Positions 29,792 through 61,970 are shown, counted from the stretch's first letter. The stretch is 64,000 bases of DNA from Deltaproteobacteria bacterium (GCA_020345765.1 CP070770.1:2868612-2932611); one strand, 5' to 3'. The notes: generated by a model from the sequence alone, not told the origin. Translations and numbers: made by a program.

Positions 29792-30721
29792 TTACAGGAA
29801 CTTCTCCAGAATGGCCTTCTGGAGATGGAGGCGGTTTTCTGCCTGGTCAAAAACAATTGATTGCTTCCCCTCCAGAACATCCTCGGTAATCTCTTCCCCC
29901 CGGTGAGCCGGCAGACAGTGCATGACCACTGCTTCGGGAGGGGCAGAGCTCAGTAGTTCGTGGTTTACCTGAAAGCCCTGGAAGTCGCTCAACCTCTGCT
30001 CCTGCTCGGCCTCCTGGCCCATGCTCGTCCAGACATCGGTGTTGATCACCTCAACATCCTTTACCGCCTCCCGGGGGTCGTGAAGGATGTTTATTTTGGA
30101 GGAAGCGATCTTGAGGGACTCGTCAAGGATACCTCCATCGGGCTGGTACTTCGGTGGGCAGGCAATATTGAGATCGAAGCCAAGCAGGGCCGCCGCCTGG
30201 ATCCAGGTATTGGCAACGTTGTTGCCGTCACCGATGTGGGCCACCTTCAGCCCCTGGTAAGATCCCCTCCTTTCTACAATGGTATAGATGTCACTCAGGA
30301 TCTGACAGGGATGGAGCAGGTCGGTAAGCCCGTTGATTACTGGCACATCGGCATATCGGGCGAGATCCACTACATCATCCTGGGAATAGGTCCGGATCAG
30401 GATTCCGTCCACATAGCGGGAAAGGGTGCGGGCAGTATCGGCAAGGGGCTCCCCCCGCCCGAGCTGGATATCCCCGGGGGTGAGGAAAATCGCCTGCCCT
30501 CCCAACTGAGACATCCCCACTTCAAAAGAGACCCGGGTCCGGGTAGAGGACTTGCTGAAGATCATGGCCAGGGTCTTCCCTTTCAGGGGCTGGTAGGGAA
30601 TTGACTTCTTAAGCTTTTTCTTGAGCTTCGCGGTATGCTCCAGGAGCTCGTCAACTTCGTCCCGGGTGAGATCGTTGATGGAAAGCAAGTCCCTTTTGTC
30701 TTTCTGTTTCTTTACCGGCAT
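29792..30721 (-). CDS. argF: ornithine carbamoyltransferase
   Basis: 309 aa. It has STRTRVSFE, HPCQILSD and HCLPAHRGEE motifs. Confidence 0.9.
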   Translation of the reverse strand: MPVKKQKDKRDLLSINDLTRDEVDELLEHTAKLKKKLKKSIPYQPLKGKTLAMIFSKSSTRTRVSFEVGMSQLGGQAIFLTPGDIQLGRGEPLADTARTLSRYVDGILIRTYSQDDVVDLARYADVPVINGLTDLLHPCQILSDIYTIVERRGSYQGLKVAHIGDGNNVANTWIQAAALLGFDLNIACPPKYQPDGGILDESLKIASSKINILHDPREAVKDVEVINTDVWTSMGQEAEQEQRLSDFQGFQVNHELLSSAPPEAVVMHCLPAHRGEEITEDVLEGKQSIVFDQAENRLHLQKAILEKFL

Positions 30722-35847: not shown

Positions 35848-36270
35848 ATGCAGACAAAAGAAAAAGATAATTTGATTTTAATAAGACTTTTTCCCGACGA
35901 AGATATTTATGAAAAATTGGAAGAGGCGGTTAAGAAATATAATGTCGAGACAGCTATTGTATTATCAGGTATTGGACAACTAAAGAATTTTGAATTGGGT
36001 TACTTTAAGGAAAAGGGTAACTATACACCGCAATTATTTACTAAGCCTCATGAATTACTTTCTTTATCAGGTAATATCTCTAAACAAAATAATAAATATA
36101 ATTTTCATTTGCACTCTGTTTTAGGAAATGAGGAAAAAGCACTTGTGGGAGGACACTTAATCAAAGGATCGGTAGCGGTAACAAATGAAATTATATTGTT
36201 GAAGACAAATTTGAAAATGAGAAGAAAGTTAGATGAGGAAGCCGGCCTGGAGGGGATGTTCCTGGAATGA
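35848..36270 (+). CDS. PPC (DUF296) domain protein
   Basis: 140 aa. LIRLFPDEDIYEKLEEAVKKYNVETAIVLSGIGQLKNFELGYF...HLHSVLG...GGHLIKG fits the PPC/DUF296 pattern. The coding DNA is strongly AT-rich. Confidence 0.65.
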   Translation: MQTKEKDNLILIRLFPDEDIYEKLEEAVKKYNVETAIVLSGIGQLKNFELGYFKEKGNYTPQLFTKPHELLSLSGNISKQNNKYNFHLHSVLGNEEKALVGGHLIKGSVAVTNEIILLKTNLKMRRKLDEEAGLEGMFLE

Positions 36271-36359
36271 ATAAAAAGATGATGGTTCTATTTTTGATAA
36301 AAAGGGCGTTGTTTCTATTTTCCACCAAAAGGTGCAATAGAATTATATAAAATAAACTT

Positions 36360-37100
36360 ATGGGATTTTACGAGGATTTTGTAGAAAAATACGACTTATT
36401 AGTTTCTTGGGAAAATCGTTTTAAGAGAGAGCATAAATTTTTCAATACTTTGCTCTCGAAATACCAGATTAAATCGATCCTGGATTGTGCCTGCGGAACA
36501 GGTCAGCATGTTGTTATGTTTCATCAAATGGGGATAATAGCAAAAGGCTCTGATTTGTCACCTGCGATGGTTAAGAAAGCGAAAATAAACGCAAGAAAAT
36601 ATAAAGTGAAGGCGGATTTCAAGGTTGCGGATTTTAGAAATTTGTCTAAAGTCTTTAAGGAAAAATTTGATGCGGTCGTTTGTGTCGGGAATTCACTCCC
36701 CCATCTATTGAGCGACCGCGACCTTAAAAAAGCTATCCATGAAATGGGGAAGGTCCTCAATCCAAAGGGACTTCTAATTCTCCAACAACGCAATTACGAC
36801 ATGCTAATAGGTTCTAAGAAACGGTTTTTCAATATGGCTACTCGAGAAAATGAGGCATTTTTCTATGTGTTAGACTATTTGCCCAACAAAATAGTATTTA
36901 ACATTGTTAATCTTGATACAAAGTCCAAAAAATTTAAGGTGTATACAACAGATTATAATCCTCTTAAAAAGGCAAAATTAGTTAGGTTGCTTAAAGAATG
37001 TGGATTCAATAGATTTGAATTTTACGGTGATTATGATTTTAATAAGTTTGATCTAAAAAAAGGAAATGATTTGATTATGATTTGTAAAAAATCAAGTTAA
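36360..37100 (+). CDS. class I SAM-dependent methyltransferase
   Basis: 246 aa. Motif I is ILDCACGTGQHVVMF, and post-I/II motifs are present. It is AT-rich like its upstream neighbour. Confidence 0.8.
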   Translation: MGFYEDFVEKYDLLVSWENRFKREHKFFNTLLSKYQIKSILDCACGTGQHVVMFHQMGIIAKGSDLSPAMVKKAKINARKYKVKADFKVADFRNLSKVFKEKFDAVVCVGNSLPHLLSDRDLKKAIHEMGKVLNPKGLLILQQRNYDMLIGSKKRFFNMATRENEAFFYVLDYLPNKIVFNIVNLDTKSKKFKVYTTDYNPLKKAKLVRLLKECGFNRFEFYGDYDFNKFDLKKGNDLIMICKKSS

Positions 37101-37208
37101 GTGAACTGATCCGCCTCTCAAATTACAGTAGATAACAATTTGGAAACAGAGAGAAGTTATTGAGATATTGACTTTTTGAAGATAAACGGATGCTGCCTTT
37201 ATTTTCCC

Positions 37209-38036
37209 ATGGGAATTTTTAAAGACAAAATTGATATTATTACGGGAGGGGCTTCGGGGATCGGCCGGGCACTCGGGGAGGAACTATCCCGCCGCGGTGC
37301 ACTGGTGATCCTGGTCGATATGAATACTAAACTGCTCGAGGAAGTTGCCAACTCAATAACGGAAGCAGGGGGGCGGGCGAAAGCGGCAACGCTAGATGTC
37401 TCCGATTACGAAGTGGTTAAAAAGTTGGTTGACGATACCATGACCCAATACGGCCGGTTGGATTATATCTTTAACAATGCGGGCATCGGTGTTGCTGGCG
37501 AGGCTCGAGACTATTCCTACGAGGACTGGCGCAAGGTCATCGATGTGAATCTCTATGGTGTCGTCAATGGTGTTGCCGCAGCCTACCCGATTATGGTAAA
37601 GCAGGATTTCGGACACATCATAAACACCGCATCTTTAGCGGGGCTGCTCCCTTCGGCGGGGGTAATTTCCTATGTTGCAAGCAAGTACGCCATAGTAGGG
37701 CTCTCCAATGCACTGCGGGTGGAGGGCGCGGATCTTGGTGTGAAGGTCAGTGTAGTTTGCCCCGGATTGATTAGGACGCCGATCCTTAATACCACTAAGT
37801 TTGTTAAAATTGACCGCGAAAAATCGCTCAAGATGGCGCCTGAAGCCATAAGCATAACTCCCGAGAAATGCGCCCGGATAATTTTGCGCGGGGTCGAACG
37901 TAATAAGGCGACCATCGTAGTAACGCTTACGGCCAAGTTATCTTGGCTGATACAACGAATCAGCCCAGGATTAGTGCTCTGGATGGGGAGACAATCTGTA
38001 AAGATAATGCGTAAAGTGGTACGGGTTGATGATTAA
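37209..38036 (+). CDS. short-chain dehydrogenase/reductase (SDR)
   Basis: From ATG 37209: MGIFKDKIDIITGGASGIGRA (TGxxxGxG), NNAG, and the YVASK catalytic Tyr-Lys. Confidence 0.85.
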   Translation: MGIFKDKIDIITGGASGIGRALGEELSRRGALVILVDMNTKLLEEVANSITEAGGRAKAATLDVSDYEVVKKLVDDTMTQYGRLDYIFNNAGIGVAGEARDYSYEDWRKVIDVNLYGVVNGVAAAYPIMVKQDFGHIINTASLAGLLPSAGVISYVASKYAIVGLSNALRVEGADLGVKVSVVCPGLIRTPILNTTKFVKIDREKSLKMAPEAISITPEKCARIILRGVERNKATIVVTLTAKLSWLIQRISPGLVLWMGRQSVKIMRKVVRVDD

Positions 38037-46411: not shown

Positions 46412-47827
46412 TTAAAACCCTTTACCAATCTGGGCGCTGAGCAAAGGCTGGTTGTCTACTTTGTTTTCCCCGATAATCAGCTTGAGGGGATGGTCGATAT
46501 AGTTTAAATACGGGACCTCATCTCCCAGTTGGTAATTGGGGGGATGGGAGAACTCTAAATAGAATCGATAATCACCCACAAATCCTTTTGCGCTGGTTAG
46601 ATCCCAGTCCTGCCACATATACCCGATATTTCCGGGTGATTGTTCGGGAGGATCCTTATCTTTTTGGTCGTCGATTAGTCCCATTTTAACTTCAAATCCT
46701 TCGATCGGGTCAGGGAACAGGGAACGGGTCATGAAAGTCCCGCAGGACCCGGTTAGTACCCTCCAGGTGTCGGGGGCCGGGTTAAAATCTTCCTCTCCGT
46801 CGTCCATTTTGCCATCAACGACGAAGCCCTGGAGATTGTTAGAATTATAGGTCATGGATCCGAGGGCATTCGGACCGTAGTCGGTTCCGAAGCGGATCAC
46901 TGCCTCTTTAAGAACAAGTTTTTGGAAGGAGCCGGGTATGTGGACGGTAACCGGGACCGTGGTTGTATTTCGGTACTGGCAGACATCAGAGAATGTTCGC
47001 ATAAGCTTAACATTAAAGAACATTCCCGCCCACTGTTCCACTCTCCTTACTACCCTGATCGGACCTCTCTTATAGGCAAGGACATCAGAGGATAGATTCT
47101 CTTCATTAAGCCTGATGGTAGGGAGGAAACGGATCTTATACCTTGGCCTTATTTTGAGCCGATCAACATAATTCTTGCCACATCCACCTGCCGAGGGTGG
47201 CATAATTTCGTATTCATAATAAGAGGAATGCAAGCCATCTTTAGTGATAATATATTTACTTTGGAAGTAATCGGTTTGAATAGATTCATTTTCGTGATCA
47301 TAATGAACATAAGGAGATTGCGAAGACAGGGAGGGTGGATTGGTCGGAAAATGAAGGAAATAGCACCATCCCTTTCCCCCGGTCAGTGGATCCACCACTT
47401 CGATCTCGATCCCGCCGGCAAATCCTTCCAGCCATTTTTCTTTCTCTGCCCGATCCCCAGTATCGGAGACCATAAATAAGAGCACATCTTGAGGGTCAAG
47501 GATCCCGTTTCCCAGATTCGCATTATTCTTCTTTCCTTCCGGCAGGACCCAATCTCCCTCTTCGGTCATCTCATCTATCTGGAAAAGGATAGGGGCAAAT
47601 TTTCCATCTCGATAGGCGTAAAGTCTCAGGTTTGAGATAAGACTGCCTAATAGTTCTTTGGGCAGTACCTCTGCCTTCATAACCACCGGGTCGGGCCAAC
47701 GGGTAATGGTTTTTACCCCATCGGTGGCGGGCTGCTCTTCTTGGGCCCAGAGGCTCTCCCCGCTTCGGGAAATGAATATCAGGAGGGAAGCAACTGCGAA
47801 GACAGCAATTTTTTTACCTGAACTCAT
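46412..47827 (-). CDS. hypothetical secreted protein
   Basis: 471 aa with a signal peptide (KKIAVFAVASLLIFISRSGESLWA). I recognised no domain. Confidence 0.55.
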   Translation of the reverse strand: MSSGKKIAVFAVASLLIFISRSGESLWAQEEQPATDGVKTITRWPDPVVMKAEVLPKELLGSLISNLRLYAYRDGKFAPILFQIDEMTEEGDWVLPEGKKNNANLGNGILDPQDVLLFMVSDTGDRAEKEKWLEGFAGGIEIEVVDPLTGGKGWCYFLHFPTNPPSLSSQSPYVHYDHENESIQTDYFQSKYIITKDGLHSSYYEYEIMPPSAGGCGKNYVDRLKIRPRYKIRFLPTIRLNEENLSSDVLAYKRGPIRVVRRVEQWAGMFFNVKLMRTFSDVCQYRNTTTVPVTVHIPGSFQKLVLKEAVIRFGTDYGPNALGSMTYNSNNLQGFVVDGKMDDGEEDFNPAPDTWRVLTGSCGTFMTRSLFPDPIEGFEVKMGLIDDQKDKDPPEQSPGNIGYMWQDWDLTSAKGFVGDYRFYLEFSHPPNYQLGDEVPYLNYIDHPLKLIIGENKVDNQPLLSAQIGKGF

Positions 47828-51821: not shown

Positions 51822-52562
51822 ATGAAACATGGATTGTTCATAACCGGAACCGATACCGGAGTAGGGAAAACCCTGGTCACCGCCGCACTCGCTTCCCTAC
51901 TTCGGGCGGAAGGAATAGATGTAGGAGTAATGAAGCCGGTCGAAAGCGGTTGCCCGCGGCAGAAAGGGAAGCTTGTGCCCCAGGACGCCCTTTTTTTGCG
52001 GGAGGCAGCCGGGAGCGAGGATGACCTGGAGCTGATCAATCCCTGCCGACTCGAAGCCCCTTTAGCTCCCAGCCTGGCGGCGGAAAGAGAGGGGGTGGAG
52101 ATTAACCTGGGAAAACTGATTGAGTGCTTTCAGACATTGAAAGAAAGACATGATTTTATTTTAGTTGAAGGGGCCGGGGGGCTGCTGGTTCCACTCAAGG
52201 AAAGGTATCTGGTTTCCGATCTTGTTCAGCTATTCCAGCTTCCCCTCCTGATAGTCGCTGCCTCCCGGCTGGGGGCAGTCAACCATACCCTGTTGACAAC
52301 AAGATGCGCCCAGTCCCTTAAGATCGAGATAGTCGGAGTAATCCTCAATAATCTGGAGGAGGAAGGAGATACAGCATCCCGGAGTAATCCCCATCTGCTC
52401 CCGCATTTACTGGAAGTTCCCCTCCTTTGTGTGATCCCCTTTATTCCCCGGATTCACGAATTGAAGAAAGAAAAGCTGGCGGGTCTAATTAAAGAAAGGA
52501 TCAGTCTTTCTGTGCTCGTGGGAGGTCCAGAGCAATCAAACCCTGATCCCGGAATTTCTTGA
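51822..52562 (+). CDS. bioD: dethiobiotin synthase
   Basis: 246 aa. P-loop FITGTDTGVGKT. The start abuts the bioA stop. Confidence 0.85.
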   Translation: MKHGLFITGTDTGVGKTLVTAALASLLRAEGIDVGVMKPVESGCPRQKGKLVPQDALFLREAAGSEDDLELINPCRLEAPLAPSLAAEREGVEINLGKLIECFQTLKERHDFILVEGAGGLLVPLKERYLVSDLVQLFQLPLLIVAASRLGAVNHTLLTTRCAQSLKIEIVGVILNNLEEEGDTASRSNPHLLPHLLEVPLLCVIPFIPRIHELKKEKLAGLIKERISLSVLVGGPEQSNPDPGIS

Positions 52563-53535
52563 TGATCTTGATCACCTGGGATGACTTAATCGGGCTGATG
52601 GCAACGATTGCCTTGATACTCTTAGCACCGTCAATCCGGGAGATTATAAAGCCGGCCTGGGAAGGAAAGCTCTTTTGCTCGAGTTCCTTTTTGGCAATAA
52701 TCAGATGGGGAACCAATTTGATATCGATCCCCTCGATCTCCGGTGGGTAAACATTTGCTTCCAAAGACTGCGGATCAAGGGCGGTTATTTTAGTAATTAC
52801 ATCTTCATCCGGGGCAAAACAATATTCGTCTTCCACGATGTGGCTTGTATCGATCCAGCCATTGTTGTAAAGCTCATAGAGTTGAGAATAAAAGGGAAAC
52901 GGGAGAATATGAAGCCGGTAGATCATCTCCCCGATAGTCTTGCCTTCCATAATTAGTTCCTCAATGGCTTTTCCCTTTAGAAGACCGGAGGGCAGTTCAG
53001 CGTCATCCCTTTTAAGCTTGAGTACGGTCTCATCGGAGGTGAAGATTTGTCGGAACCGCTTCCATTCATCACTGCGATACGTACCCTCCATCGCGATGCT
53101 GTCTGGGTTGATAGAGACCCGGATTTTTAGATCCGGGGGGAGCTCGTCTTCAAGGAAGATGAAATAGCCGTCATCCCAGACAAAGATGTCGTAGATAGTT
53201 TCCACCACCTTAATCGAGAGGACATCGCTTATCTGGCGCTCATTCATCAGGCCGGTCATTACCAGAATGTCACCAATATGAGCCTTGGTTTCCGTCTGGG
53301 TTTCCAGGGCCAGGATCAGGTCAATCTCCCCCATTCTTCCGTAGCTGAGCAGAAATTGTCCCAGGTACTCCCGGGGATTATTGGAGTTGGATGAGATGAT
53401 CGTTCCTTCCTGGAAATAGACCCATTTGATCCATTCTTGCCACTGGATGACCATGGTGCCCGTCTTTCTGGATGCCCCTATCCACTGGATAAGGTCAGCG
53501 AGACTCATGGTAGATAATGTTCCTTCTAAGGCCAT
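52501..53535 (-). CDS. DUF4388-domain protein with C-terminal GFxxSRxDG module
   Basis: 344 aa. The N-terminus LEGTLSTMSLADLIQWIGASRKTGTMVI...VYFQEGTII fits the DUF4388 pattern. The C-terminus is QAGFIISRIDGAKSIKAIVAISP...IKKFRDQGLIAL. Confidence 0.7.
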   Translation of the reverse strand: MALEGTLSTMSLADLIQWIGASRKTGTMVIQWQEWIKWVYFQEGTIISSNSNNPREYLGQFLLSYGRMGEIDLILALETQTETKAHIGDILVMTGLMNERQISDVLSIKVVETIYDIFVWDDGYFIFLEDELPPDLKIRVSINPDSIAMEGTYRSDEWKRFRQIFTSDETVLKLKRDDAELPSGLLKGKAIEELIMEGKTIGEMIYRLHILPFPFYSQLYELYNNGWIDTSHIVEDEYCFAPDEDVITKITALDPQSLEANVYPPEIEGIDIKLVPHLIIAKKELEQKSFPSQAGFIISRIDGAKSIKAIVAISPIKSSQVIKIIKKFRDQGLIALDLPRAQKD

Positions 53536-53545
53536 TTTCCTTACA

Positions 53546-54301
53546 CTAACCGGCGGGGTTTCGGGTTAACTCCTGGCTGATAAAGGTAGGCGGTCGGGCC
53601 TCAATCTCCCTCTTTACCGTCTCATACTTATCCTTGGTGCCCAGATCTACCCAGTATCCTTCCATTTGGTATCCATAGACTCTTTTGCCCTTCCGGATCA
53701 ACTCGATATAGGTATCATTTATTGAGGAGAAGATGTCGGCAGGGATGTATTGAAAGATCTCGGGCTCGAAGATATGGATCCCGGTAAACATGAATTGTTT
53801 CAGATCCTGCCCGGATTCATCAGGAATTTTGTCCAGGAATTGCCGAATTCTACCCTCCCGATCGATCTCGATGACACCATAGGAATCTTTGTTTTCCTCA
53901 CTGCGTAGTACCATCGTAGCTAATGCTTTCTTTTTCTGGTGAAAATCCATTGCCCCGTTCAAGTCGAAGTCAACCAGAATGTCACAGTTAATAACCAAAA
54001 ATGTATTTTTTGGGAAAAATCCCTCCACTTTTTTAATTCCACCTCCGGTGCCGAGGATCTCCGGTTCGTCAGAGTAGCTTATCTGGAGTCCGAGCTGGGA
54101 GCCGTCTCCTAGTTCTTCTTTAATGGACTGGGGATGATGGTGGAGATTAATAATGATCTCATTGAACCCCCATTTCTTTAAGAAAGCAAGGGTGTAGTTT
54201 ATTTAGGGACGGCCGGAAAGGGGAAGGAGAGCCTTGGGAATCCCTTTGGTCAGCGGAAGCAAACGGGTACCATAACCGGCAGCCAGGATCATTGCCTTCA
54301 T
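53546..54301 (-). pseudogene. MurU-like sugar-1-phosphate nucleotidyltransferase interrupted by an in-frame TAA at codon 33
   Basis: From ATG 54301: [32 protein letters not shown], then TAA (complement of 54203-54205), then INYTLAFLKKWGFNEIIINLHHH...GTGGGIKKVEGFF... in the same frame, running into the 53546..54028 ORF. Homologs have Leu at the stop position (GxPLI). Confidence 0.6.
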
Positions 54302-54322
54302 ACTTTCTCTCCGCACTGACTT

Positions 54323-55435
54323 TTACCTAAATTCTTCCACATATTTCTCCAATACCTGTTTCAACTCTTTTAGATAGTCATACTTATCTAAATTCTTCTT
54401 GACATAACCTAAGGTGGGAGCAATGTACTTGAGATAACGGTCGTTGTTTTTAGCCAGGTTGATATACCCAAACCTACCGGCGGCCTTCAGGTTCCGCTGA
54501 ATACTGGTTAGATCAAAGAGTTCCCGGAACTCGGTGCGGTCGATCCGGATCCCCTCGATGTCTTCCTTTCCGTCCAGGTAATAGTGGATCATTTCATCGA
54601 TAAAACTCTCCTCTAGGGTCAGGTAGGAATCCCTGAGCAGAGAGGCGAGATCATACTGACAGGGCCCCAAAAGGGCATCCTGAAAATCAAGGATTTTAAT
54701 CTGTTCGTTCTGAACGATCAGGTTACGACTGTGATAATCACGATGGGTGAAATAACGGGGCTGGCTCGATAGCCTCTCAGAGATCTGCTTAAAACTTCTT
54801 TGGATTATTTTTCGGTCCCTATTGGGAACCTCTATGCCGTGAAGTTTCTCAATTCCATATTCAAGGAAGTGCTCAAACTCCCACATAAAAAGTTGGGTAT
54901 TAAAGGCCTGACGAAAGGCAAAGCAATGGGCGTCCTTCCTTTCAGTCCCCCGGAACTGAAGCTTGATCAGCTCATCAACGGCCTTCCGATAATACTTTCT
55001 CTGGATTTTCCGTTCCTTTCCCTTAACCTTTTCCTCCAAAAGGGTTTCGCCTAGGTCCTCCAGAAACAGGAGGCCCCGGCCTTCATCGTAATGATAGAGC
55101 CGGGGGACATTGAGCCCGCAGAGATGGAGATGCCTTAAGATATTAATGAAGGGGAGCTCGTCAAAGGTTTGGGATATGGTCGATATTTCCTCGGAGACAA
55201 TTTGAGGATCAGGTTGATTAAGTTTCATCAGGATTATAGAGTTCTGCCCACAACCCGCTACCGCATCCCGGAGCCTGACCCGATAGTAGCTCCGATTAGA
55301 GGCATCCCCGGCCAGCCTTTCCAGCTCTATATCCTTTACCGAGGGAACTAAGGATTCCCTGATTGATTGGATTACTATGCGCTTCATTTGATTGAGATTA
55401 TCAAAAATTTTACTACCCAACCTAATCTCTGTCAA
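54323..55435 (-). CDS. aminoglycoside-phosphotransferase-fold kinase, AmgK (anomeric MurNAc/GlcNAc kinase)-like
   Basis: 370 aa. It has the Brenner motif HRDYHSRNLIV and ILDFQDALLGP. It lies directly upstream of the MurU-like gene, as in the AmgK-MurU pair. Confidence 0.65.
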   Translation of the reverse strand: MTEIRLGSKIFDNLNQMKRIVIQSIRESLVPSVKDIELERLAGDASNRSYYRVRLRDAVAGCGQNSIILMKLNQPDPQIVSEEISTISQTFDELPFINILRHLHLCGLNVPRLYHYDEGRGLLFLEDLGETLLEEKVKGKERKIQRKYYRKAVDELIKLQFRGTERKDAHCFAFRQAFNTQLFMWEFEHFLEYGIEKLHGIEVPNRDRKIIQRSFKQISERLSSQPRYFTHRDYHSRNLIVQNEQIKILDFQDALLGPCQYDLASLLRDSYLTLEESFIDEMIHYYLDGKEDIEGIRIDRTEFRELFDLTSIQRNLKAAGRFGYINLAKNNDRYLKYIAPTLGYVKKNLDKYDYLKELKQVLEKYVEEFR

Positions 55436-55490
55436 ATCCCAGATTCGTAGTCCATCGGAATACAGAAACTTACTGTTTCAATTAATATAA

Positions 55491-55515
55491 TGTCTCATTT
55501 ATATTTAATGAGACA
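55491..55515. promoter_or_regulatory. perfect inverted repeat TGTCTCAT-N9-ATGAGACA (second copy of the candidate UAS)
   Basis: TGTCTCAT is at 55491-55498 and ATGAGACA at 55508-55515. A further TGTCTCAT at 55626-55633 is partnered with ATGAGAAT at 55647-55654. Confidence 0.5.
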
Positions 55516-55741
55516 CTTTATGCCTATTAATTTATCTGGATCTATTATTCCCCCCATAATATACCATATTTCTTGGGGGTATTCAGCTTGTTCGGAAGTA
55601 TCTTTCTGGAGACTGTATATTAAACTGTCTCATTTAGAATAATTAAATGAGAATTGCCTGATTTTTTATTTACATAAATAAATTATATTAATATCTTTAT
55701 TTTCAAATAGTTAGAAAAAGCGATTAGGATTGTGACAGGTT

Positions 55742-55757
55742 TGGCATACTCTTTGCC
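55742..55757 (+). promoter_or_regulatory. sigma-54-type promoter TGGCAT-N5-TTGCC
   Basis: GG is at 55743-55744 and GC at 55755-55756. It is preceded at the same 25-nt gap by ATATCTTTATTTTCAAATAGTTAGAA (55691-55716). That block matches 18768-18793 at 25 of 26 positions. Confidence 0.6.
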
Positions 55758-55933
55758 AATAATAGAATTGAACGTTAAGAAAGGCAAGTTTTTCCGTAGA
55801 GTCATAAAGTTACATAAAATTACTCTAAGTAGGGTAAGAGAGCTTTTTCACCTATATCACTCTTCCTGAGCCAATCAAATGGGCTGATATAATTGAGTAT
55901 AAGTGGCAAGAGTAGAGCAAGGCGACTTTTTTC

Positions 55934-55962
55934 TTGACAAAAGACGCAAAATTTTATATAAA
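55934..55962 (+). promoter_or_regulatory. sigma-70-like promoter (TTGACA-N17-TATAAA)
   Basis: TTGACA is at 55934-55939 and TATAAA at 55957-55962, about 70 nt upstream of the J-protein ATG. Confidence 0.5.
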
Positions 55963-56030
55963 AAGTTGCACCCTTGTGTAATCAGTTAAAAAATTTGTTC
56001 TTCTATCCGATTCGGAAAAAGTATTAATAT

Positions 56031-57272
56031 ATGCAAGAGAAAGATCTTGTCATAGGGTCGGAAACCCTGAAGTATCGACCGAGAATCAACCAGTCTCTGG
56101 ATCTCCGCAAACTTAGCATTGATCCTAAGGAAGGATTTCTTCTTTCGAGGGTAGATGGTAACACCAGTGTGGAACAACTCCTGATGGTGAGCGGTATGGA
56201 TCGGGAGGAGACAATGCAATCCCTGTCTAAGCTTCTCAAACAGGGAATAATTTTCTTCGCAGAGAAACTGAAGGAAAAAACCGAGAGAAAAGAACAAGGA
56301 GCACCGTATAGTCAGGTAAAGGGCAAGAAAGCCGAGAAAGAGGAAGATTGGGTAGTAGATGAGGGGGTGGAGATTTCTGAGAAAGATAAGGAGAAGATCC
56401 ATTCCACTTACAAATCTCTGGGTAATCTTAATTATTATAAGATCCTGGGAATTGAAAAGGGTGCCGATCAGCGAAAAATCAAGAGTGCTTATTTCAGCCT
56501 TTCCCGGGAGTTTCACCCGGATCGCTACTTCCGTAAATCCATCGGTAGATATAAGAGCATGTTGGAGAATATTTTCAAGAAGGTTTCCGAAGCCTATGAG
56601 ATACTCTATGATCCCCATTCTCGGGAGGAGTATGATAAGAGCATCATATCCGATATATCCGAGGAGAAGATAATCGAGGCCCGGAAACAATCGGAGAAGC
56701 CGATCCGGAAAGGGCATCATCTGGACAAGGCACTCCAGCCAATTATAGAGAGAATGGGTAAGGCCAAAGGCTTTTATAAGACGGGGAAGAAAGATGTTCT
56801 CGATAAAAATTATAAGTCTGCTAGTGTAAACTTCAAGCTGGCCGTCGCTTACGATCCTTACAATGAGCAGTATAAGGAGAGCTTGGCCGAGGCTCAGGAG
56901 ATTGTTAAGAAGCAGGAGTCGGAGAAGCTGATAAGGAGGGCTGCCTTTGAGGAAGAGGTTGGCAGGTTCGCCGATGCCCTGAAACTTTTGGAGCAAGTGG
57001 TTCAGATCACCTCGGACAATCCCGAGCCCTATCACAAGATGGCACAGTTACTTCTTAATCATAACCGGGATCTCCGTCAGGCGAAGAACTACTGCCTTCG
57101 GGCAATAGACATGGATTCAGATAATACCGAGTATTATCTGACCCTCGGATCGATTTACGAAGCTGCCGGGCTTTTCCGCAATGCCGCCCGGGAGTTCCAG
57201 AAGGTATTAAATTTAGATAAGGGAAATTCTGAGGCCCAGGAAGGTTTGAAGAGGTTAAAGAAATTCCACTAA
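56031..57272 (+). CDS. J-domain protein with N-terminal GFxxSRxDG module and C-terminal TPR repeats
   Basis: 413 aa. It has KEGFLLSRVDGNTSVEQLL...LLKQGIIFF (aa ~33-76). The J domain is NYYKILGIEKGADQRKIKSAYFSLSREFHPDRY, with an intact HPD. The C-terminus has TPR-like repeats. Confidence 0.8.
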   Translation: MQEKDLVIGSETLKYRPRINQSLDLRKLSIDPKEGFLLSRVDGNTSVEQLLMVSGMDREETMQSLSKLLKQGIIFFAEKLKEKTERKEQGAPYSQVKGKKAEKEEDWVVDEGVEISEKDKEKIHSTYKSLGNLNYYKILGIEKGADQRKIKSAYFSLSREFHPDRYFRKSIGRYKSMLENIFKKVSEAYEILYDPHSREEYDKSIISDISEEKIIEARKQSEKPIRKGHHLDKALQPIIERMGKAKGFYKTGKKDVLDKNYKSASVNFKLAVAYDPYNEQYKESLAEAQEIVKKQESEKLIRRAAFEEEVGRFADALKLLEQVVQITSDNPEPYHKMAQLLLNHNRDLRQAKNYCLRAIDMDSDNTEYYLTLGSIYEAAGLFRNAAREFQKVLNLDKGNSEAQEGLKRLKKFH

Positions 57273-57298
57273 GGTCAAGTTAGAGAGGAAGAAAGGCA

Positions 57299-58873
57299 AT
57301 GGGAAAAGTTATCGGTATTGACTTAGGTACTACTAATTCCTGTGTTTCCGCAATGGATGACGGGCGTCCGATCGTTATTCCCAGCAAGGCGGGATACCGA
57401 ACCACCCCCTCGGTATTTGCGGTAACCGAAAAGGACAAGAAACTGGTCGGTCATCTTGCCAAGCGGCAGGCAATTACCAATCCTAAAAACACCATATATT
57501 CGGCGAAAAGACTCATTGGCCGCCGCTTTAGTTCACCCGAGGTAAAGAAGGCAACCAAGACCTATTCCTACCAGATTACGAAAGGTCCCCACGATGATGT
57601 GCGCGTTATCAGCGGAGGTAAAGAGTACAGCCTTCCCGAGATCTCGGCAATGATTCTCCTGGAGATGAAGAGAATCGCGGAGGAGTATCTGAGAGAAAAG
57701 GTTACCGAGGCAGTAATTACCGTTCCTGCTTACTTCAATGACAATCAGCGTCAGGCTACCAAGGACGCCGGAATTGTGGCCGGTCTGGAGGTTCTGCGTA
57801 TTATCAATGAGCCGACGGCAGCTGCCCTGGCCTACGGGATGATTAAGAAGAGGCGGGAGGAGAGGATAGCCGTTTATGACCTGGGCGGAGGTACCTTCGA
57901 TATCTCCATTCTGGAGCTGGGGGCCGGTGTCTTCGAGGTAATCTCGACTGCTGGCGATACTTATCTCGGGGGGGAAGATTTTGATACGGGGATAATGGAT
58001 TACCTGGTTGAGGAGTTCTCCGGGTCAACGGGAATCAATCTGAGCGACGACCGGATGGCCCTTCAGCGACTCTCGGACGCCGCCGAGAAGGCCAAATGTG
58101 AGCTTTCCGCGGTGAAGGAAGCACAAATTAATCTGCCGTTTATTGCCTCGGATACCCGGGGTCCCAAGCACCTTGACCTAAGGTTGACCAGAGAGAAGCT
58201 TGCGGAATTGACCAAGGATATCGTGGAGAGAACGATCAAGATCTGTGAGGAGACAATTCAGCAGGCAAAGCTAAACAAGAAAGACATTAATGAAGTAATC
58301 CTGGTGGGAGGACAGACCCGCAGCCCACTGGTCCAGGAGATGGTAAGGAATTTCTTCGGCAAACAGCCGCACAAGGGAGTCCATCCTGATGAGGTGGTGG
58401 CCATAGGGGCGGCAGTGCAGGCCGCCGCACTCACCGAGGAGAAAACGGAGCTACTGCTTTTAGATGTTACCCCACTATCCCTGGGGATCGCCACCCACGG
58501 GGGATTCTTTACCCCACTGATTGAACGGAATACTACCGTCCCCGTCCGCAAGAGTCATATATTCACCACTGCCCGGGATGATCAAACCACGGTTAAGATC
58601 CGGGTGCTTCAAGGGGAAAGTGACCGGGCGGATGATAACGAGCTTTTAGGAGAGTTTATGCTGAGCGGTATCCGCAAGGCCAAAAAGGGAGAGCCGGAGA
58701 TCGATGTTAGCTTCGATATCAATGCCGACGGGATAGTGAATGTTTCCGCGAAGGACTTGGAAACAAAGAAGGAGCAATCCATAACGGTTACCGCTTCGAG
58801 CGGCCTTACCGAGGATGAGGTTCGCCAGATGGCGGAAGAGGCTCAAATGTACGAACTGGAACTGAAGCAATAA
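57299..58873 (+). CDS. atypical short Hsp70 (DnaK paralog lacking the helical lid)
   Basis: 524 aa. NBD motifs [22 protein letters not shown] and VILVGGQTR are present. The SBD-beta region is present. The protein ends (…[25 protein letters not shown]) where the canonical DnaK lid begins. Confidence 0.85.
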
Positions 58874-58884
58874 GAGAGCGGATT

Positions 58885-59697
58885 ATGCACAGCAACTCTG
58901 AAGTCAATAAGTATCTGGAAGAGGGGCTCAATTTTTACGGGCTGGGCAAATTCAAACAAGCGATCGAGTGTTGGAAAAAGGTTCTGGAGATAGATCCCAA
59001 TAATTCGCTGGCAAAGGACTATATTGAGTCTGCCGGGGGAACGGTAGATAGGGAAACAGCAAAGCCTCCAAGTAGATTAGAGGTGCCTCCTGTCCGTACA
59101 ACAAAGCCACCGCCGCCTTCCCCACCTCCTCCGCCGCCGGAGCCCGATCGGAGGACAAAAGTCACTGCTCCACCGACAGAGCCCGATCGGGAAGCCAAAG
59201 TTATCTCTCCGCCGCCGAAGCCTGAGCGGGAAGACAGGTTTAGGCGGGAAATGCCTTTTTCTAAGGAGATTCCGGAAGAACCACTCCCTCACGTCAGGGA
59301 TGTTCCTCCTCTGCCCGAGCCTGATCTGGAGGATAAACTTGGCCTTGCTAAGAGCTTCTTTGCGGAAAACCAGTTTGAACAGGCGATGGAGATATTTGAA
59401 TCCATCCTCCAGGAAGAGCCTGACAATCTTGATGTTCAGGGGTACTATGAGATGGCCCGGAGTCAACAGCTAAAGAAGTATAAATCCGAAGTAGGTGACC
59501 TGTCTCAGATTCCCCGGGTGAGCAAATCCCAATCGGAAATCTTGCAGCAAGATTTAGACCACGAGGAGGGTTTCATCCTCTCTCTTGTTGATGGTAGTCT
59601 GGAATATAACGATTTATTTTCCCTGAGTAATATGGATGACTTTAAGACCTACCGGATCATCTGTAGACTTCTTCGCCAGGGGATAATCGAGGTCTGA
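58885..59697 (+). CDS. TPR / proline-rich repeat protein with C-terminal GFxxSxxDG module
   Basis: 270 aa. It has an N-terminal TPR (YGLGKFKQAIECWKKVLEIDPNN), a PPPPSPPPPPPEPDR... repeat region, a second TPR, and the C-terminus EEGFILSLVDGSLEYNDLF...LLRQGIIEV. Confidence 0.7.
   Translation: MHSNSEVNKYLEEGLNFYGLGKFKQAIECWKKVLEIDPNNSLAKDYIESAGGTVDRETAKPPSRLEVPPVRTTKPPPPSPPPPPPEPDRRTKVTAPPTEPDREAKVISPPPKPEREDRFRREMPFSKEIPEEPLPHVRDVPPLPEPDLEDKLGLAKSFFAENQFEQAMEIFESILQEEPDNLDVQGYYEMARSQQLKKYKSEVGDLSQIPRVSKSQSEILQQDLDHEEGFILSLVDGSLEYNDLFSLSNMDDFKTYRIICRLLRQGIIEV
59140..59256 (+). repeat. three imperfect 39-nt tandem repeats inside the TPR/Pro-rich gene
   Basis: GAGCCCGATCGG is at 59140 and at 59179. 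A diverged AAGCCTGAGCGG is at 59218, giving a 39-nt period. The repeats encode P(E/K)P(D/E)R-x-x-KV-x-x-PP units. Confidence 0.6.
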
Positions 59698-59708
59698 AAG
59701 GATACCTG

Positions 59709-60746
59709 ATGCTGAATAAGATGAAGACTATACTGACCTATTTAGACACTCCGATAATTATCGGGGATGCCAATAACAAGCTTATTTATCTTAATCCGGC
59801 CGGGGAGGAGGTATTTCAGAGGAAGGTAATGGAACTCGTAGGCAAGGAGGTTAGAGAATTATTCAGCGGCGATAGTTGGGAGGGCATTCTGGAAACCATT
59901 ACCCAGGTGAGGAAACAAAACCGCCCTTCCCGGATCAGCGTTGAGGCAGGTTCCCGTAACTTCAGGGCCAGTATCTCGCCGATTATCGGTGATGAAGAAG
60001 GCTTTATTGGATATGTAATAAATTTACTGGATATCGCCGAGGGTAAAGTGGCCGACCAATTGAAAGCCGATGCCTTAATAATTGTAAACCAAATACGCGA
60101 TCCTCTTCTGGATATCGCTGACACCTTGAATGAGTTGAAAAAAAAGGTTTCTTCCGGGCTCAAGAAGGAAGCAAGTAGGTTAATTGAAAAGGGATTGGAA
60201 GATTCTCAAAAGGTGATAAGATTGGTAGACGAGCTTCTCGGTTTCCCGGATGCTGAATCCAAAAAGCCAGAGGTTAAGCAGGAGGAACTGGACATCTCCA
60301 AGATAATCAAAAATACGATCAGTGATATGGAACCCTTTGCCAAAAAAGAGGGAGTGGCGCTGGAGTGGACGATTCCGGCCAATCTCCCGAAGATGTTAGG
60401 GGATCAGGAAAAATTAACCTATGCCCTGAACAGCCTTTTAGGGTTCTCGCTTAATCATACTCCGGCGAAGGGAGTAATCACGGTCTCAGGAAAAACCGGT
60501 CAGAAAAAGGATGGGCGGCGCCCTCTTATTATTACGGTAAGCGATACCGGTGAGGGTATTGACCAGGCTGAACTGCCTCATCTATTCGACGGCAATTCTC
60601 CGAAGGCTCACTCAGAGGAAGACGAACCCTCAGTGCGGTTAGGCGCGGTTAAGGATATCATTGAGGCACACCAGGGAAGGATCTCAGTGGTCAGTGAGAA
60701 GGGGATCGGGACTACTTTCTCAATTGTCCTCCCTGCGGTAAATTAG
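59709..60746 (+). CDS. PAS-domain histidine-kinase-like ATPase lacking the phospho-acceptor His
   Basis: 345 aa. It has a PAS-like N-terminus. The DHp-like helix is IIVNQIRDPLLDI, where the H-box SHELRTPL aligns with VNQIRDPL (Asn codon at 60087-60089). N, G1 (DTGEGI) and G2 (GIGTTF) boxes are intact. Confidence 0.7.
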   Translation: MLNKMKTILTYLDTPIIIGDANNKLIYLNPAGEEVFQRKVMELVGKEVRELFSGDSWEGILETITQVRKQNRPSRISVEAGSRNFRASISPIIGDEEGFIGYVINLLDIAEGKVADQLKADALIIVNQIRDPLLDIADTLNELKKKVSSGLKKEASRLIEKGLEDSQKVIRLVDELLGFPDAESKKPEVKQEELDISKIIKNTISDMEPFAKKEGVALEWTIPANLPKMLGDQEKLTYALNSLLGFSLNHTPAKGVITVSGKTGQKKDGRRPLIITVSDTGEGIDQAELPHLFDGNSPKAHSEEDEPSVRLGAVKDIIEAHQGRISVVSEKGIGTTFSIVLPAVN

Positions 60747-60770: not shown

Positions 60771-61970
60771 GTGAAGAAGATTGTTCTGGCATATTCTGGG
60801 GGTCTGGATACCTCGGTATGCATCCCCTGGCTGAAACAGAGGTATGGTGGTGAGATTATAGCCTTCCTGGCCGATCTAGGACAGGAGGAAGAATTAGAGG
60901 GCTTAAAGGAGAGGGCACTCGCAATTGGAGCCAGCAAGGTTTTCCTCGAGGATCTCCGGGAGGAGTTTGCGAGGGACTTTGTTTTTCCCATGCTACGGGC
61001 CAATGCCCATTATGAGGGTAGCTACCTTCTGGGAACCTCCATTGCCCGACCCCTGATCGCCAGAAAGCAGATCGAGATCGCTGCCCAAGAAGGTGCCGAT
61101 GCGGTTGCCCACGGTGCTACCGGAAAGGGTAATGATCAGGTTCGCTTTGAACTTACCTACCTTGCGCTTAACCCCGAGATAGAGATCATTGCTCCCTGGC
61201 GGGAATGGGAATTCAAGTCACGCCGGGCTCTTATCGATTATGCGGCAAAAGAAAAGATACCAATTACCGCCACCCGGGAGAAGCCTTACTCCTCTGACCG
61301 TAACCTTTTCCATATCAGCTTCGAGGGAGGAATCCTGGAGGACCCCTGGGTCGAGCCCCCGAAAGATATGTTTGTTCTCACCCGTTCTCCCCAAGAGGCA
61401 CCGGACAAAGAGACCGATATTGAGATTGAGTACCGGGAGGGGAATCCGGTGGCCCTTAATGGGGAACAACTCTTGCCGTCCGAGCTTCTGAGTAAACTGA
61501 ATGGCATTGGAGGGGAGAATGGAATTGGAAGGGTGGATCTGGTGGAGAATCGTTTCGTGGGAATGAAATCCCGGGGGGTCTACGAAACCCCGGGAGGCAC
61601 TATCCTCCATATTGCCCATCGGGCAGTGGAGTCTCTCACCATGGACCGGGAGGTGCTGCACCTTCGGGATTCCCTGATCCCCAAATATTCCGAGCTGATT
61701 TACTACGGGTTCTGGTTCTCTCCGGAGCGGGAGCTGCTGCAGGCTACTATTGATGAATCTCAAAAAAATGTGACCGGGACCGTTCGGTTGAGATTATATA
61801 AAGGGAACTGCCAGGTTATCGGCCGGAGGTCGGATAGAGCCCTTTATCACCCGGGATTAGCTACCTTTGAAGAGGATAAGGTCTACAATCAAAAGGATGC
61901 CGAGGGATTTATCCGCCTTAATGCCCTCCGGCTCATGCTCAGGAAAATAACGGATAAGGGGAATAAATAG
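60771..61970 (+). CDS. argG: argininosuccinate synthase
   Basis: 399 aa with a GTG start. Motifs: AYSGGLDTS, and [12 protein letters not shown] within [15 protein letters not shown]. Confidence 0.95.

Follow-up and report, generated by a model that had tools for sequence, protein, structure and literature searches.

A 64,000-nucleotide (64 kb) stretch of DNA from a Deltaproteobacteria bacterium (GCA_020345765.1 CP070770.1:2868612-2932611), referred to here as the window, carries at positions 56031-60746 a run of four plus-strand genes encoding a J-domain protein (g1), an Hsp70 chaperone without its lid (g2), a tetratricopeptide repeat (TPR) protein (g3) and a PAS-containing pseudo-histidine kinase (g4). 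A preliminary description had proposed that the four genes form one functional module, in which a chaperone pair is coupled to a sensory ATPase and to TPR scaffolds. We analysed the four proteins and their coding sequences together with homologous loci from other genomes, which are numbered L001 onward. The open reading frame (ORF) listing agrees with the preliminary description on the compact, same-strand arrangement, giving gaps of 26, 11 and 11 nucleotides (nt), and purine-rich Shine-Dalgarno-like runs lie ahead of g2, g3 and g4. The four genes are as follows.

56031-57272, plus strand: g1, class-C J-domain protein with a winged-helix (wH) domain, a J-domain and a helical/TPR domain; 413 amino acids (aa); Pfam and AlphaFold2 (AF2)
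57299-58873, plus strand: g2, DnaK-derived Hsp70 naturally without the alpha-helical lid or the C-terminal tail; 524 aa; Pfam
58885-59697, plus strand: g3, TPR, proline-rich repeat linker, TPR and C-terminal wH domain; 270 aa
59709-60746, plus strand: g4, PAS domain, helical region resembling a dimerisation and histidine phosphotransfer (DHp) domain without the histidine, and degenerate HATPase_c domain, a pseudo-histidine kinase; 345 aa

The J-protein and its lidless Hsp70

The J-domain of g1 occupies residues 134-202 (nt 56430-56636; Pfam DnaJ, E = 2.1e-17) and contains an intact HPD motif at residues 162-164. It is preceded by the wH domain at about residues 10-78 (nt 56058-56264) and followed by the helical/TPR domain at residues 236-413 (nt 56736-57269), with Pfam TPR matches within residues 300-400, as expected from the preliminary description of a J-domain protein with TPR repeats. 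With its intact HPD motif, and without Gly/Phe-rich (G/F), zinc-finger or DnaJ C-terminal domains, g1 has the features of a functional-type class-C J-protein. DnaJ equivalog models match the J-domain of g1 only, and HscB models give weak matches (E = 3.8e-5) that lie far below cutoff. Two motifs do not vary among 16 homologs of g1, namely EGFLLSRxDG within the N-terminal domain and FHPDR within the J-domain; most of the homologs have the longer HPDRYFRK.

The AF2 model of g1, with a mean predicted local distance difference test (pLDDT) score of 80.1, resolves the winged helix, the J-domain and the long helical/TPR domain as three structured parts, separated by low-confidence stretches at residues 79-113 and shorter ones at about 206-229. 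The three-TPR unit at the C-terminus superposes on Hop TPR1, RPAP3 TPR1 and the SGT TPR with target-normalised template-modelling (TM) scores of 0.86-0.92 and root-mean-square deviations of 1.2-1.7. It is matched equally well by designed consensus TPR proteins, which indicates that the fold match is generic. None of the carboxylate-clamp residues of Hop TPR1 (K8, N12, N43, K73 and R77) is conserved in the 16 g1 homologs. An EEVD-like carboxylate clamp, in which the TPR unit would hold the conserved tail of the Hsp70, was considered and rejected, because the clamp residues are not conserved; the Hsp70 tail, too, is not EEVD. On the opposite strand, a 349-aa ORF at 55986-57035 (minus strand) overlaps g1; it is of low complexity and Leu-rich, and was judged a shadow ORF, not a gene.

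The second gene product, g2, matches the Pfam HSP70 profile at E = 3.2e-217 over profile positions 1-519 of 599. Its residues 1-516 align with residues 1-520 of Escherichia coli DnaK in solved structures, which places the end of the 524-aa protein at about DnaK residue 528, beyond helix A and only a few turns into lid helix B. The preliminary description of a lidless Hsp70 thus stands. All 16 catalytic, J-contact, linker and pocket residues that were checked are conserved or invariant. More specifically, the catalytic residues D8, K70, E171, T199 and D201 and the J-contact residues R167, N170 and T173 are invariant in 74/74 complete g2 orthologs, as are L390-L392 of the interdomain linker; D393 of the linker is present in 73/74, and F426, V436 and I438 of the hydrophobic pocket are kept in 71-73 of the 74. 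The substrate arch is altered: M404 is replaced by F or Y in 62/74 orthologs (by H in the window) and A429 by T in 67/74.

The truncation of g2 recurs throughout the family. Complete orthologs of 521-531 aa, ending at the same position as g2, make up 71 of the 74, and the tail of these lidless proteins is itself conserved, in the form ..EENELYEVxLK(E/D/G) or ..E(Y/F)(E/D)LP... This shared endpoint and conserved tail argue that the loss of the lid is a family trait and not the mark of a pseudogene. A second sample of Hsp70s contained 34 lidless and 4 lidded proteins. The lidded minority, of 607-617 aa, comes from loci labelled Nannocystis, Labilithrix or Myxococcales (L009, L030, L038, L104, L125, L130 and L147), four of which (L009, L030, L038 and L130) lie directly after hslU. 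In a neighbour-joining tree of the Hsp70s, the whole family is set off from E. coli DnaK by a long branch, and the internal branches among the small clade of the window, the lidded clade and the main lidless clade measure 0.009-0.03, so that one and two losses of the lid are not separable.

At the sequence level, g2 shares 57% identity with E. coli DnaK and 60-87% with members of its own family. It scores above the cutoff of one DnaK model (NF001413, 798.6 bits, cutoff 648), below that of the DnaK equivalog TIGR02350 (778.6 bits, cutoff 822.55) and below that of the HscA model TIGR01991 (547.9 bits, cutoff 708.55). No HscC-specific model appeared among the NCBIfam matches of g2, in which DnaK models ranked first. 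By these model scores, g2 groups with DnaK rather than with HscA, and apparently also rather than with HscC. Neither grpE nor dnaJ nor a second Hsp70 gene was found within the 64 kb window, which extends to the whole stretch what the preliminary description had said of grpE in the cluster.

Gene neighbourhood and companion proteins

To place the four genes in a wider context, we compared them with loci from a genome scan that used one genome per species. The scan of species-representative genomes yielded 269 matches encoding a g1 relative, nearly all of them in uncultured Myxococcota or 'Deltaproteobacteria' metagenome-assembled genomes (MAGs), and 83 loci were compared with the window proteins by tblastn. 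Full-length homologs of g1 share 26-76% identity with it. An Hsp70 gene lies directly downstream of the J-protein gene in 83/83 loci, even where J-protein identity falls to 26-38%, and further loci in later samples show the same arrangement. This adjacency bears out the suggestion that the Hsp70 and the J-protein are a dedicated pair, set apart from dnaK-grpE-dnaJ. The companion genes are less constant, as counted over the 64 distinct loci with enough downstream sequence:

PAS gene (g4-like): present in about 52/64 loci
TPR-wH gene (g3-like): present in 31/64 loci
All four genes: present in 27/64 loci
argG directly downstream of the module: 53/64 loci

The script itself returned 50 loci with a PAS gene; L063 and L071 were added, which it had missed only because of a 3-nt overlap between the PAS gene and the Hsp70 stop codon. 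The PAS gene is thus missing in about 12/64 loci and the TPR-wH gene in about half. Because g3, g4 and the surrounding arg/hslVU genes vary and the pair does not, the J-protein and the Hsp70 constitute the invariant core, with g3 and g4 as common companions that the pair can do without. The proposal of a single four-gene module therefore survives in part: the linkage of the PAS and TPR genes to the pair recurs, and the four have not been parted where flanking arg genes are gone, but the association is not obligate.

The surroundings of the module are also conserved. On the long contigs of three distant g1 homologs, the gene order is trmFO-xerC-hslV-hslU-(receiver-GAF)-argB-(argD)-argF-[module]-argG, the module consisting of a J-TPR protein, an Hsp70 of 523-524 aa, in some cases a TPR protein of about 200 aa, and a PAS protein of about 315 aa. 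Across the loci, argF is adjacent on the upstream side in 66/77, hslU and hslV are found in 55/56, xerC in 54/56 and a receiver-GAF gene in 49/56. The receiver-GAF gene comes after hslU and before argB, some 3.5 kb ahead of the J-protein gene, in the slot that we take to correspond to the place of the GAF regulator CodY in the gid-codV-clpQ-clpY-codY frame of Bacillus. The absence of a response regulator, noted in the preliminary description, thus holds for the window but not for the corresponding region in most relatives. The xerC-hslVU-arg setting is an old syntenic frame. The lidless pair appears to be vertically conserved within a large, mostly uncultured Myxococcota-type lineage.

In the window this frame is broken. 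Here argF is found at 29795-30697 on the minus strand, 26 kb from argG and on the opposite strand to it, and hslVU and argB are absent from the 64 kb, although the run from g1 to g4 and on to argG is intact. Since relatives have argB-argF immediately ahead of the module, this displacement points to a lineage-specific rearrangement; L004, which likewise has no argF upstream, has undergone it at least in part. Conversely, the four genes are all present in L005, L036 and L064, where argG is missing downstream. The run in the window extends beyond the four genes, which the preliminary description had missed: argG begins 24 nt after g4 and an aminotransferase gene follows another 8 nt on, so that the tight same-strand run is longer than four genes.

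60771-61970, plus strand: argG, argininosuccinate synthase; conserved downstream neighbour of g4

A consensus scan found no terminator-like site between g4 and argG. From this and from the 24-nt gap, argG is probably co-transcribed with the module.

Of the two companions, g4 consists of a PAS domain at residues 4-106 by Pfam (4-111 in the overall domain layout) and a HATPase_c domain at residues 231-343 (E = 7.2e-15, 55.8 bits). It has no Pfam HisKA match, and residues 111-195 contain no histidine at all, in agreement with the original account of a PAS plus HATPase_c protein without the phosphoacceptor. Across 39 full-length homologs the PAS domain is well conserved. In contrast, the H-box has no conserved histidine, the acceptor position being taken by N, R or Q; the region reads NQIRDPL in the window and (H/Q)REIxEPL in others. 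In the same alignment, with box positions assigned by eye, the N-box Asn is absent and the G2 region is deleted, and the G1 box DTGEG is kept in the g4 of the window, not in the other aligned family members. Furthermore, in 18 loci g4 is cut down to a PAS-only protein of about 177 aa, from which the kinase-like half is gone. Judged from these sequences, the lineage looks like a kinase in stepwise decay, with the PAS domain as the putative functional part. With neither acceptor His nor N-box Asn nor G2 box throughout the family, g4 is unlikely to signal by means of ATP, and the protein earlier labelled a 'sensory ATPase' is probably not an ATPase.

The other companion, g3, has TPR matches at residues 14-40 and 152-180 (Pfam), on either side of a linker (residues 56-150) with 30 Pro in 95 residues; the coding sequence of the linker contains 2.8 copies of a 39-nt unit (59129-59236). 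These results match the TPR protein with a proline-rich repeat linker that had been described. A feature overlooked at that stage is the C-terminal wH domain of g3 (nt 59494-59694), which is homologous to the N-terminal domain of g1. A hidden Markov model (HMM) built from g1 N-termini only matches the g3 C-terminus at 2e-8 and, at 2e-7, the C-terminus of a PATAN protein encoded on the other strand of the window; tblastn agrees.

52501-53535, minus strand: PATAN (DUF4388) protein with the same C-terminal wH domain as g1 and g3; Pfam DUF4388, E = 9.5e-26

The PATAN gene was considered as a part of the module and rejected, since the corresponding region of the closest relative, L004, has no PATAN match; the protein is a family link through the wH domain and not a conserved neighbour of the module. 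Inside its PATAN domain, residues 58-107 give a sub-threshold match to an MshEN-type cyclic di-GMP-binding motif (NF053729, 32.9 bits, cutoff 38).

The AF2 model of the isolated wH domain (pLDDT 81.5, predicted TM-score 0.71) has a beta-alpha-alpha-alpha-beta winged-helix fold. Searched against sequences of the PDB and Pfam, the wH profile gave sub-threshold winged helix-turn-helix matches only (AsnC and MarR types, E = 0.04-0.3), and Foldseek returned generic winged-helix matches only, the best being the NPRL-type winged helix of GATOR1/SEA (E = 0.02-0.08). No Pfam family covers the shared domain. With a profile built from the three copies in the window, a search of representative proteins at E <= 1e-3 identified 3659 proteins, in which the domain usually sits at the extreme C-terminus. 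A Pfam scan of the best-scoring 116 of these found TPR in 29, PATAN in 13 and a J-domain in 7, most others being without a Pfam domain. A g3-like gene is also present beside the lidded Hsp70 type, for example in L125 and L130.

The wH motif also occurs in MAGs of Acidobacteriota, Binatia and Nitrospirota. In several of these loci, for example L098, L141, L159, L172, L179 and L190, the proteins are longer, with a PATAN domain fused N-terminal to wH-J-TPR, and they are encoded beside a receiver-histidine-kinase hybrid; in the MAGs of Binatia and Acidobacteriota the gene lies directly downstream of that for the hybrid. In L159 (3800-6543, minus strand), the J-motif reads HPS where HPD is usual, and the neighbouring kinase retains its H, N, G1 and G2 boxes. 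No Hsp70 gene was found near the PATAN-wH-J-TPR genes in the 8-kb stretches around the matches, and an Hsp70 adjoining a wH-J-TPR protein was seen only in Myxococcota-type loci. The kinase neighbours lend independent if indirect support to the idea that this J-protein family is tied to signalling proteins of the two-component type, and the PATAN-wH-J-TPR protein with its hybrid kinase may be a distinct, undescribed signalling/J-protein module.

Related systems and possible function

Three types of prokaryotic Hsp70 are recognised, namely DnaK, HscA and HscC, and removal of the lid from DnaK quickens substrate exchange (PMC8215388). A 2026 review notes many lid-deleted DnaK derivatives in Myxococcales, the function of which is unexplained (PMC13580251). 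Our literature search found no paper on the lidless pair, its PAS pseudo-kinase, its TPR-wH partner or the wH domain.

The closest studied relative is probably the MXAN_3015/MXAN_3016 pair of Myxococcus xanthus, in which a class-C J-protein of 453 aa (MXAN_3015) adjoins a DnaK-like Hsp70 of 65.5 kDa (MXAN_3016), as g1 adjoins g2. Published work on the pair comprises deletion phenotypes and co-immunoprecipitation (PMC8265645, PMC11019930). Deletion of MXAN_3016 is tolerated, with sporulation and H2O2 resistance lowered, and the protein does not complement E. coli dnaK (PMC8265645). The J-domain of MXAN_3015 carries the family signature FHPDRYF..(L/I)G....(L/M)E.IF(R/K)(R/K) and scores best of the four M. 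xanthus J-domains that we compared (72 bits, against 54 for DnaJ), with 40% identity to g1 over the 72 aa that alone were compared. Unlike g2, the M. xanthus Hsp70 keeps its lid, and the pair is probably of the same type as the seven lidded loci listed above.

The HscC (YbeW) chaperone of E. coli, with DjlC (YbeV) and DjlB (YbeS), also offers a parallel as a DnaK-derived, non-housekeeping Hsp70 encoded beside its own class-C J-protein. HscC has a reduced lid (PMC13580251; PMC8215388), its locus lacks grpE and its function is poorly understood. In contrast, g2 has DnaK-like scores and a lid that is almost wholly deleted, not shortened, and the module has PAS and TPR-wH accessory genes and belongs to Myxococcota-type genomes. 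DjlC is membrane-anchored, whereas g1 looks soluble and combines wH, J and TPR domains. With the canonical DnaK-DnaJ-GrpE system the pair shares the nucleotide-binding domain (NBD), the linker and the beta part of the substrate-binding domain at 57% identity, the catalytic and J-contact residues and the intact HPD motif. It departs from that system in the loss of lid and tail, in scoring below TIGR02350, in a J-protein without G/F, zinc-finger and C-terminal domains, and in having no grpE nearby. The HscA/HscB pair does not fit: the HscA cutoff is not reached, and no isc genes lie nearby. The eukaryotic co-chaperones DNAJC3/P58IPK and DNAJC7 resemble g1 in uniting TPR and J-domain in one protein, but in g1 the order is reversed, with J before TPR.

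Two other candidates were set aside. StkA of M. xanthus (MXAN_3474) is a non-canonical DnaK homolog of about 540 aa that negatively regulates exopolysaccharide; the neighbouring genes are stkB (SCP2-like) and stkC, and no adjacent J-protein, PAS or TPR gene is described (PMC4319316), so the stk locus was rejected as a match. An anti-phage defence system was rejected as well: no PADLOC model was satisfied, the sole match being the TPR region to PrimPol at 1.2e-5, and the neighbouring genes are housekeeping ones.

Taking these results together, we lean, with moderate confidence, towards an Hsp70/J-protein pair that derives from DnaK, is client-specific and has adaptor or sensor subunits that vary, and not towards an obligate four-part machine. 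Domain content, conserved functional residues, gene linkage and the variation of the accessory genes are shown by the sequences; client specificity, fast kinetics, the parts played by g3 and g4 and the co-transcription with argG are inferred from them. In such a pair, g1 would serve as the targeting subunit, its wH domain and C-terminal TPR unit selecting a particular native client or complex and its HPD-containing J-domain triggering ATP hydrolysis in g2. The Hsp70 would run a normal ATPase and allosteric cycle; without the lid and with an altered arch, it would bind and release clients fast and would need the J-protein for productive capture. Fast exchange combined with dependence on the J-protein would point to a role in which particular proteins are remodelled or regulated, and away from bulk folding. 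As an optional adaptor or co-chaperone, g3 may dock to the partner of g1's wH domain or to g1 itself, and g4, probably a catalytically dead kinase in which the PAS domain is the conserved part, may be an optional sensor, regulator or client.

Several points weigh against this reading. In line with the preliminary description, no client gene is encoded at the locus; nor is there a gene for a nucleotide exchange factor nearby. MXAN_3015 co-purifies with the housekeeping DnaK1 (MxDnaK1) of M. xanthus (PMC11019930), which suggests that J-proteins of the g1 type may not be exclusive to the adjacent Hsp70. Part of the synteny could stem from an old xerC-hslVU-arg block that rearranges slowly, instead of from selection for co-expression. 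If the genome has no canonical dnaK, g2 would have to do general work.

The machine implied by the preliminary description, with four obligate subunits in which the PAS/HATPase protein senses a signal, ATP gates the chaperone pair and the TPR proteins act as scaffolds, appears unlikely to us. The tight spacing of the four genes in the window, their joint presence in 27 loci and their persistence where argG (L005, L036, L064) or argF (the window, L004) has been lost speak for it, as do the receiver-kinase hybrids beside the wH-J-TPR proteins of Acidobacteriota and Binatia. But a subunit missing from about half of the loci (g3), or from about 12 of the 64 (g4), is hard to reconcile with an obligate assembly, 18 loci have lost the kinase half of g4, and the family-wide lack of acceptor His, N-box Asn and G2 box makes ATP-driven signalling unlikely. 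We hold it to be equally improbable that g2 is an Hsp110-like helper of the housekeeping DnaK, that is, an NBD-NBD exchange or holding factor, with g1 mainly feeding clients to DnaK. Such a role has been proposed for the lid-deleted DnaK paralogs of Myxococcales (PMC13580251), and both the co-immunoprecipitation of MXAN_3015 with MxDnaK1 (PMC11019930) and the absence of grpE from the cluster would fit it. However, in Hsp110-type proteins the linker is degenerate and the sites for substrate and J-contact are relaxed, whereas g2 and its orthologs keep the LLLD linker, R167/N170/T173, the catalytic residues and the pocket in 71-74 of 74 cases, and a J-protein is always encoded immediately upstream.

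That there is no dedicated module at all, g2 being a redundant or back-up general Hsp70 and the four genes plus argG an inherited order without functional coupling, strikes us as quite unlikely. Its arguments are the conservation of the whole xerC-hslV-hslU-...-argB-argF-...-argG block, where synteny is generally high, the 57% identity of g2 to E. coli DnaK and its score above one DnaK model cutoff. These are countered by the complete adjacency of g1 and g2 at g1 identities down to 26%, by the survival of the pair through the rearrangements that removed argF and hslVU in the window, and by the loss of the lid and the changes in the arch, which are family-specific, conserved and unexpected in a simple back-up; in addition, the lidded MXAN_3016 fails to complement an E. 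coli dnaK mutant (PMC8265645). Service to the neighbouring genes, through delivery of substrates to HslUV or as a chaperone or regulator of the arginine-biosynthesis enzymes, seems very improbable, and we know of no precedent for an Hsp70 dedicated to such enzymes. In its favour, most loci have the module flanked by argF and argG, with hslVU a few kb upstream, the lidded type lies directly after hslU in four loci, and argG is probably co-transcribed in the window. Nevertheless, the module of the window is intact without hslVU or argB in the 64 kb and with argF far off on the other strand, and several loci have no argG downstream.

A bolder reading can also be formulated, which we put forward as speculative and rather doubtful. 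The lidless Hsp70 with its wH-J-TPR partner would constitute a fourth class of bacterial Hsp70 machine beside DnaK, HscA and HscC. Targeting would proceed through an undescribed winged-helix docking domain with the motif (E/A)GF(L/I)(L/I)SxxDG, common to J-proteins, TPR adaptors and PATAN polarity/motility regulators, and ATP-driven remodelling by Hsp70 would thereby be plugged into PATAN/pseudo-kinase signalling and not into folding. A specialised bacterial Hsp70/J-protein pair is in itself of a known kind. New, as far as the literature we found goes, are the conserved natural deletion of the lid, the putative wH targeting domain common to TPR and PATAN proteins and the apparently decaying PAS pseudo-kinase partner. 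The locus precisely defines one truncated DnaK derivative, in which the lid is gone, the allosteric machine is otherwise intact and one particular J-protein is always paired. The lidless family is thus a clean natural experiment on the purpose of the Hsp70 lid and a tractable entry to client-specific Hsp70 function in bacteria. Its by-products are an uncharacterised wH family of about 3,700 representative proteins, linking J-proteins, TPR proteins and PATAN regulators, and a PAS pseudo-kinase family apparently in stepwise decay.

Transcription signals and flanking genes

Upstream of g1, a single promoter-like element was read from the sequence:

55934-55962, plus strand: promoter-like TTGACA-N17-TATAAA, about 70 nt upstream of g1; conserved with L004

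A consensus promoter and terminator scan of the window gave counts no higher than those in shuffled sequence, and this element is absent from the scan list, its identification resting on conservation with L004. The promoter-like block is nearly the sole intergenic part conserved between the window and that relative, which is 71% identical. The conserved element is consistent with g1 as the putative head of the transcription unit in the lineage of the window. It lies within a 595-nt AT-rich spacer (55436-56030), about 450 nt of which have no counterpart in L004. The spacer holds paired inverted and direct repeats built on GTCTCATT/AATGAGAC at 55482-55521 and 55609-55642. It could represent the scar of a rearrangement or a group of sites for a regulator.

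The other window genes that were checked are housekeeping genes (secA, ileS, hflX, otsA/B and bioB), and neither Rfam families nor tRNAs were found in the window. Next to the spacer, an APH-family kinase gene (54323-55435) is followed downstream by a split nucleotidyltransferase gene (53546-54316, minus strand). One part is a 37-aa ORF at 54203-54316 with the N-terminal motif, and the other a 160-aa ORF at 53546-54028 that matches Pfam positions 102-243 of 245 only; the gene is probably a frameshifted pseudogene or the result of a sequencing error. We take the kinase and nucleotidyltransferase gene pair to resemble AmgK/MurU. Between secA and the bio genes, a 471-aa ORF (46412-47827, minus strand) has no Pfam match at E <= 1e-5. 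At 36001-38000, the GC content dips to 0.405, compared with about 0.47-0.57 in the flanking 2-kb bins.

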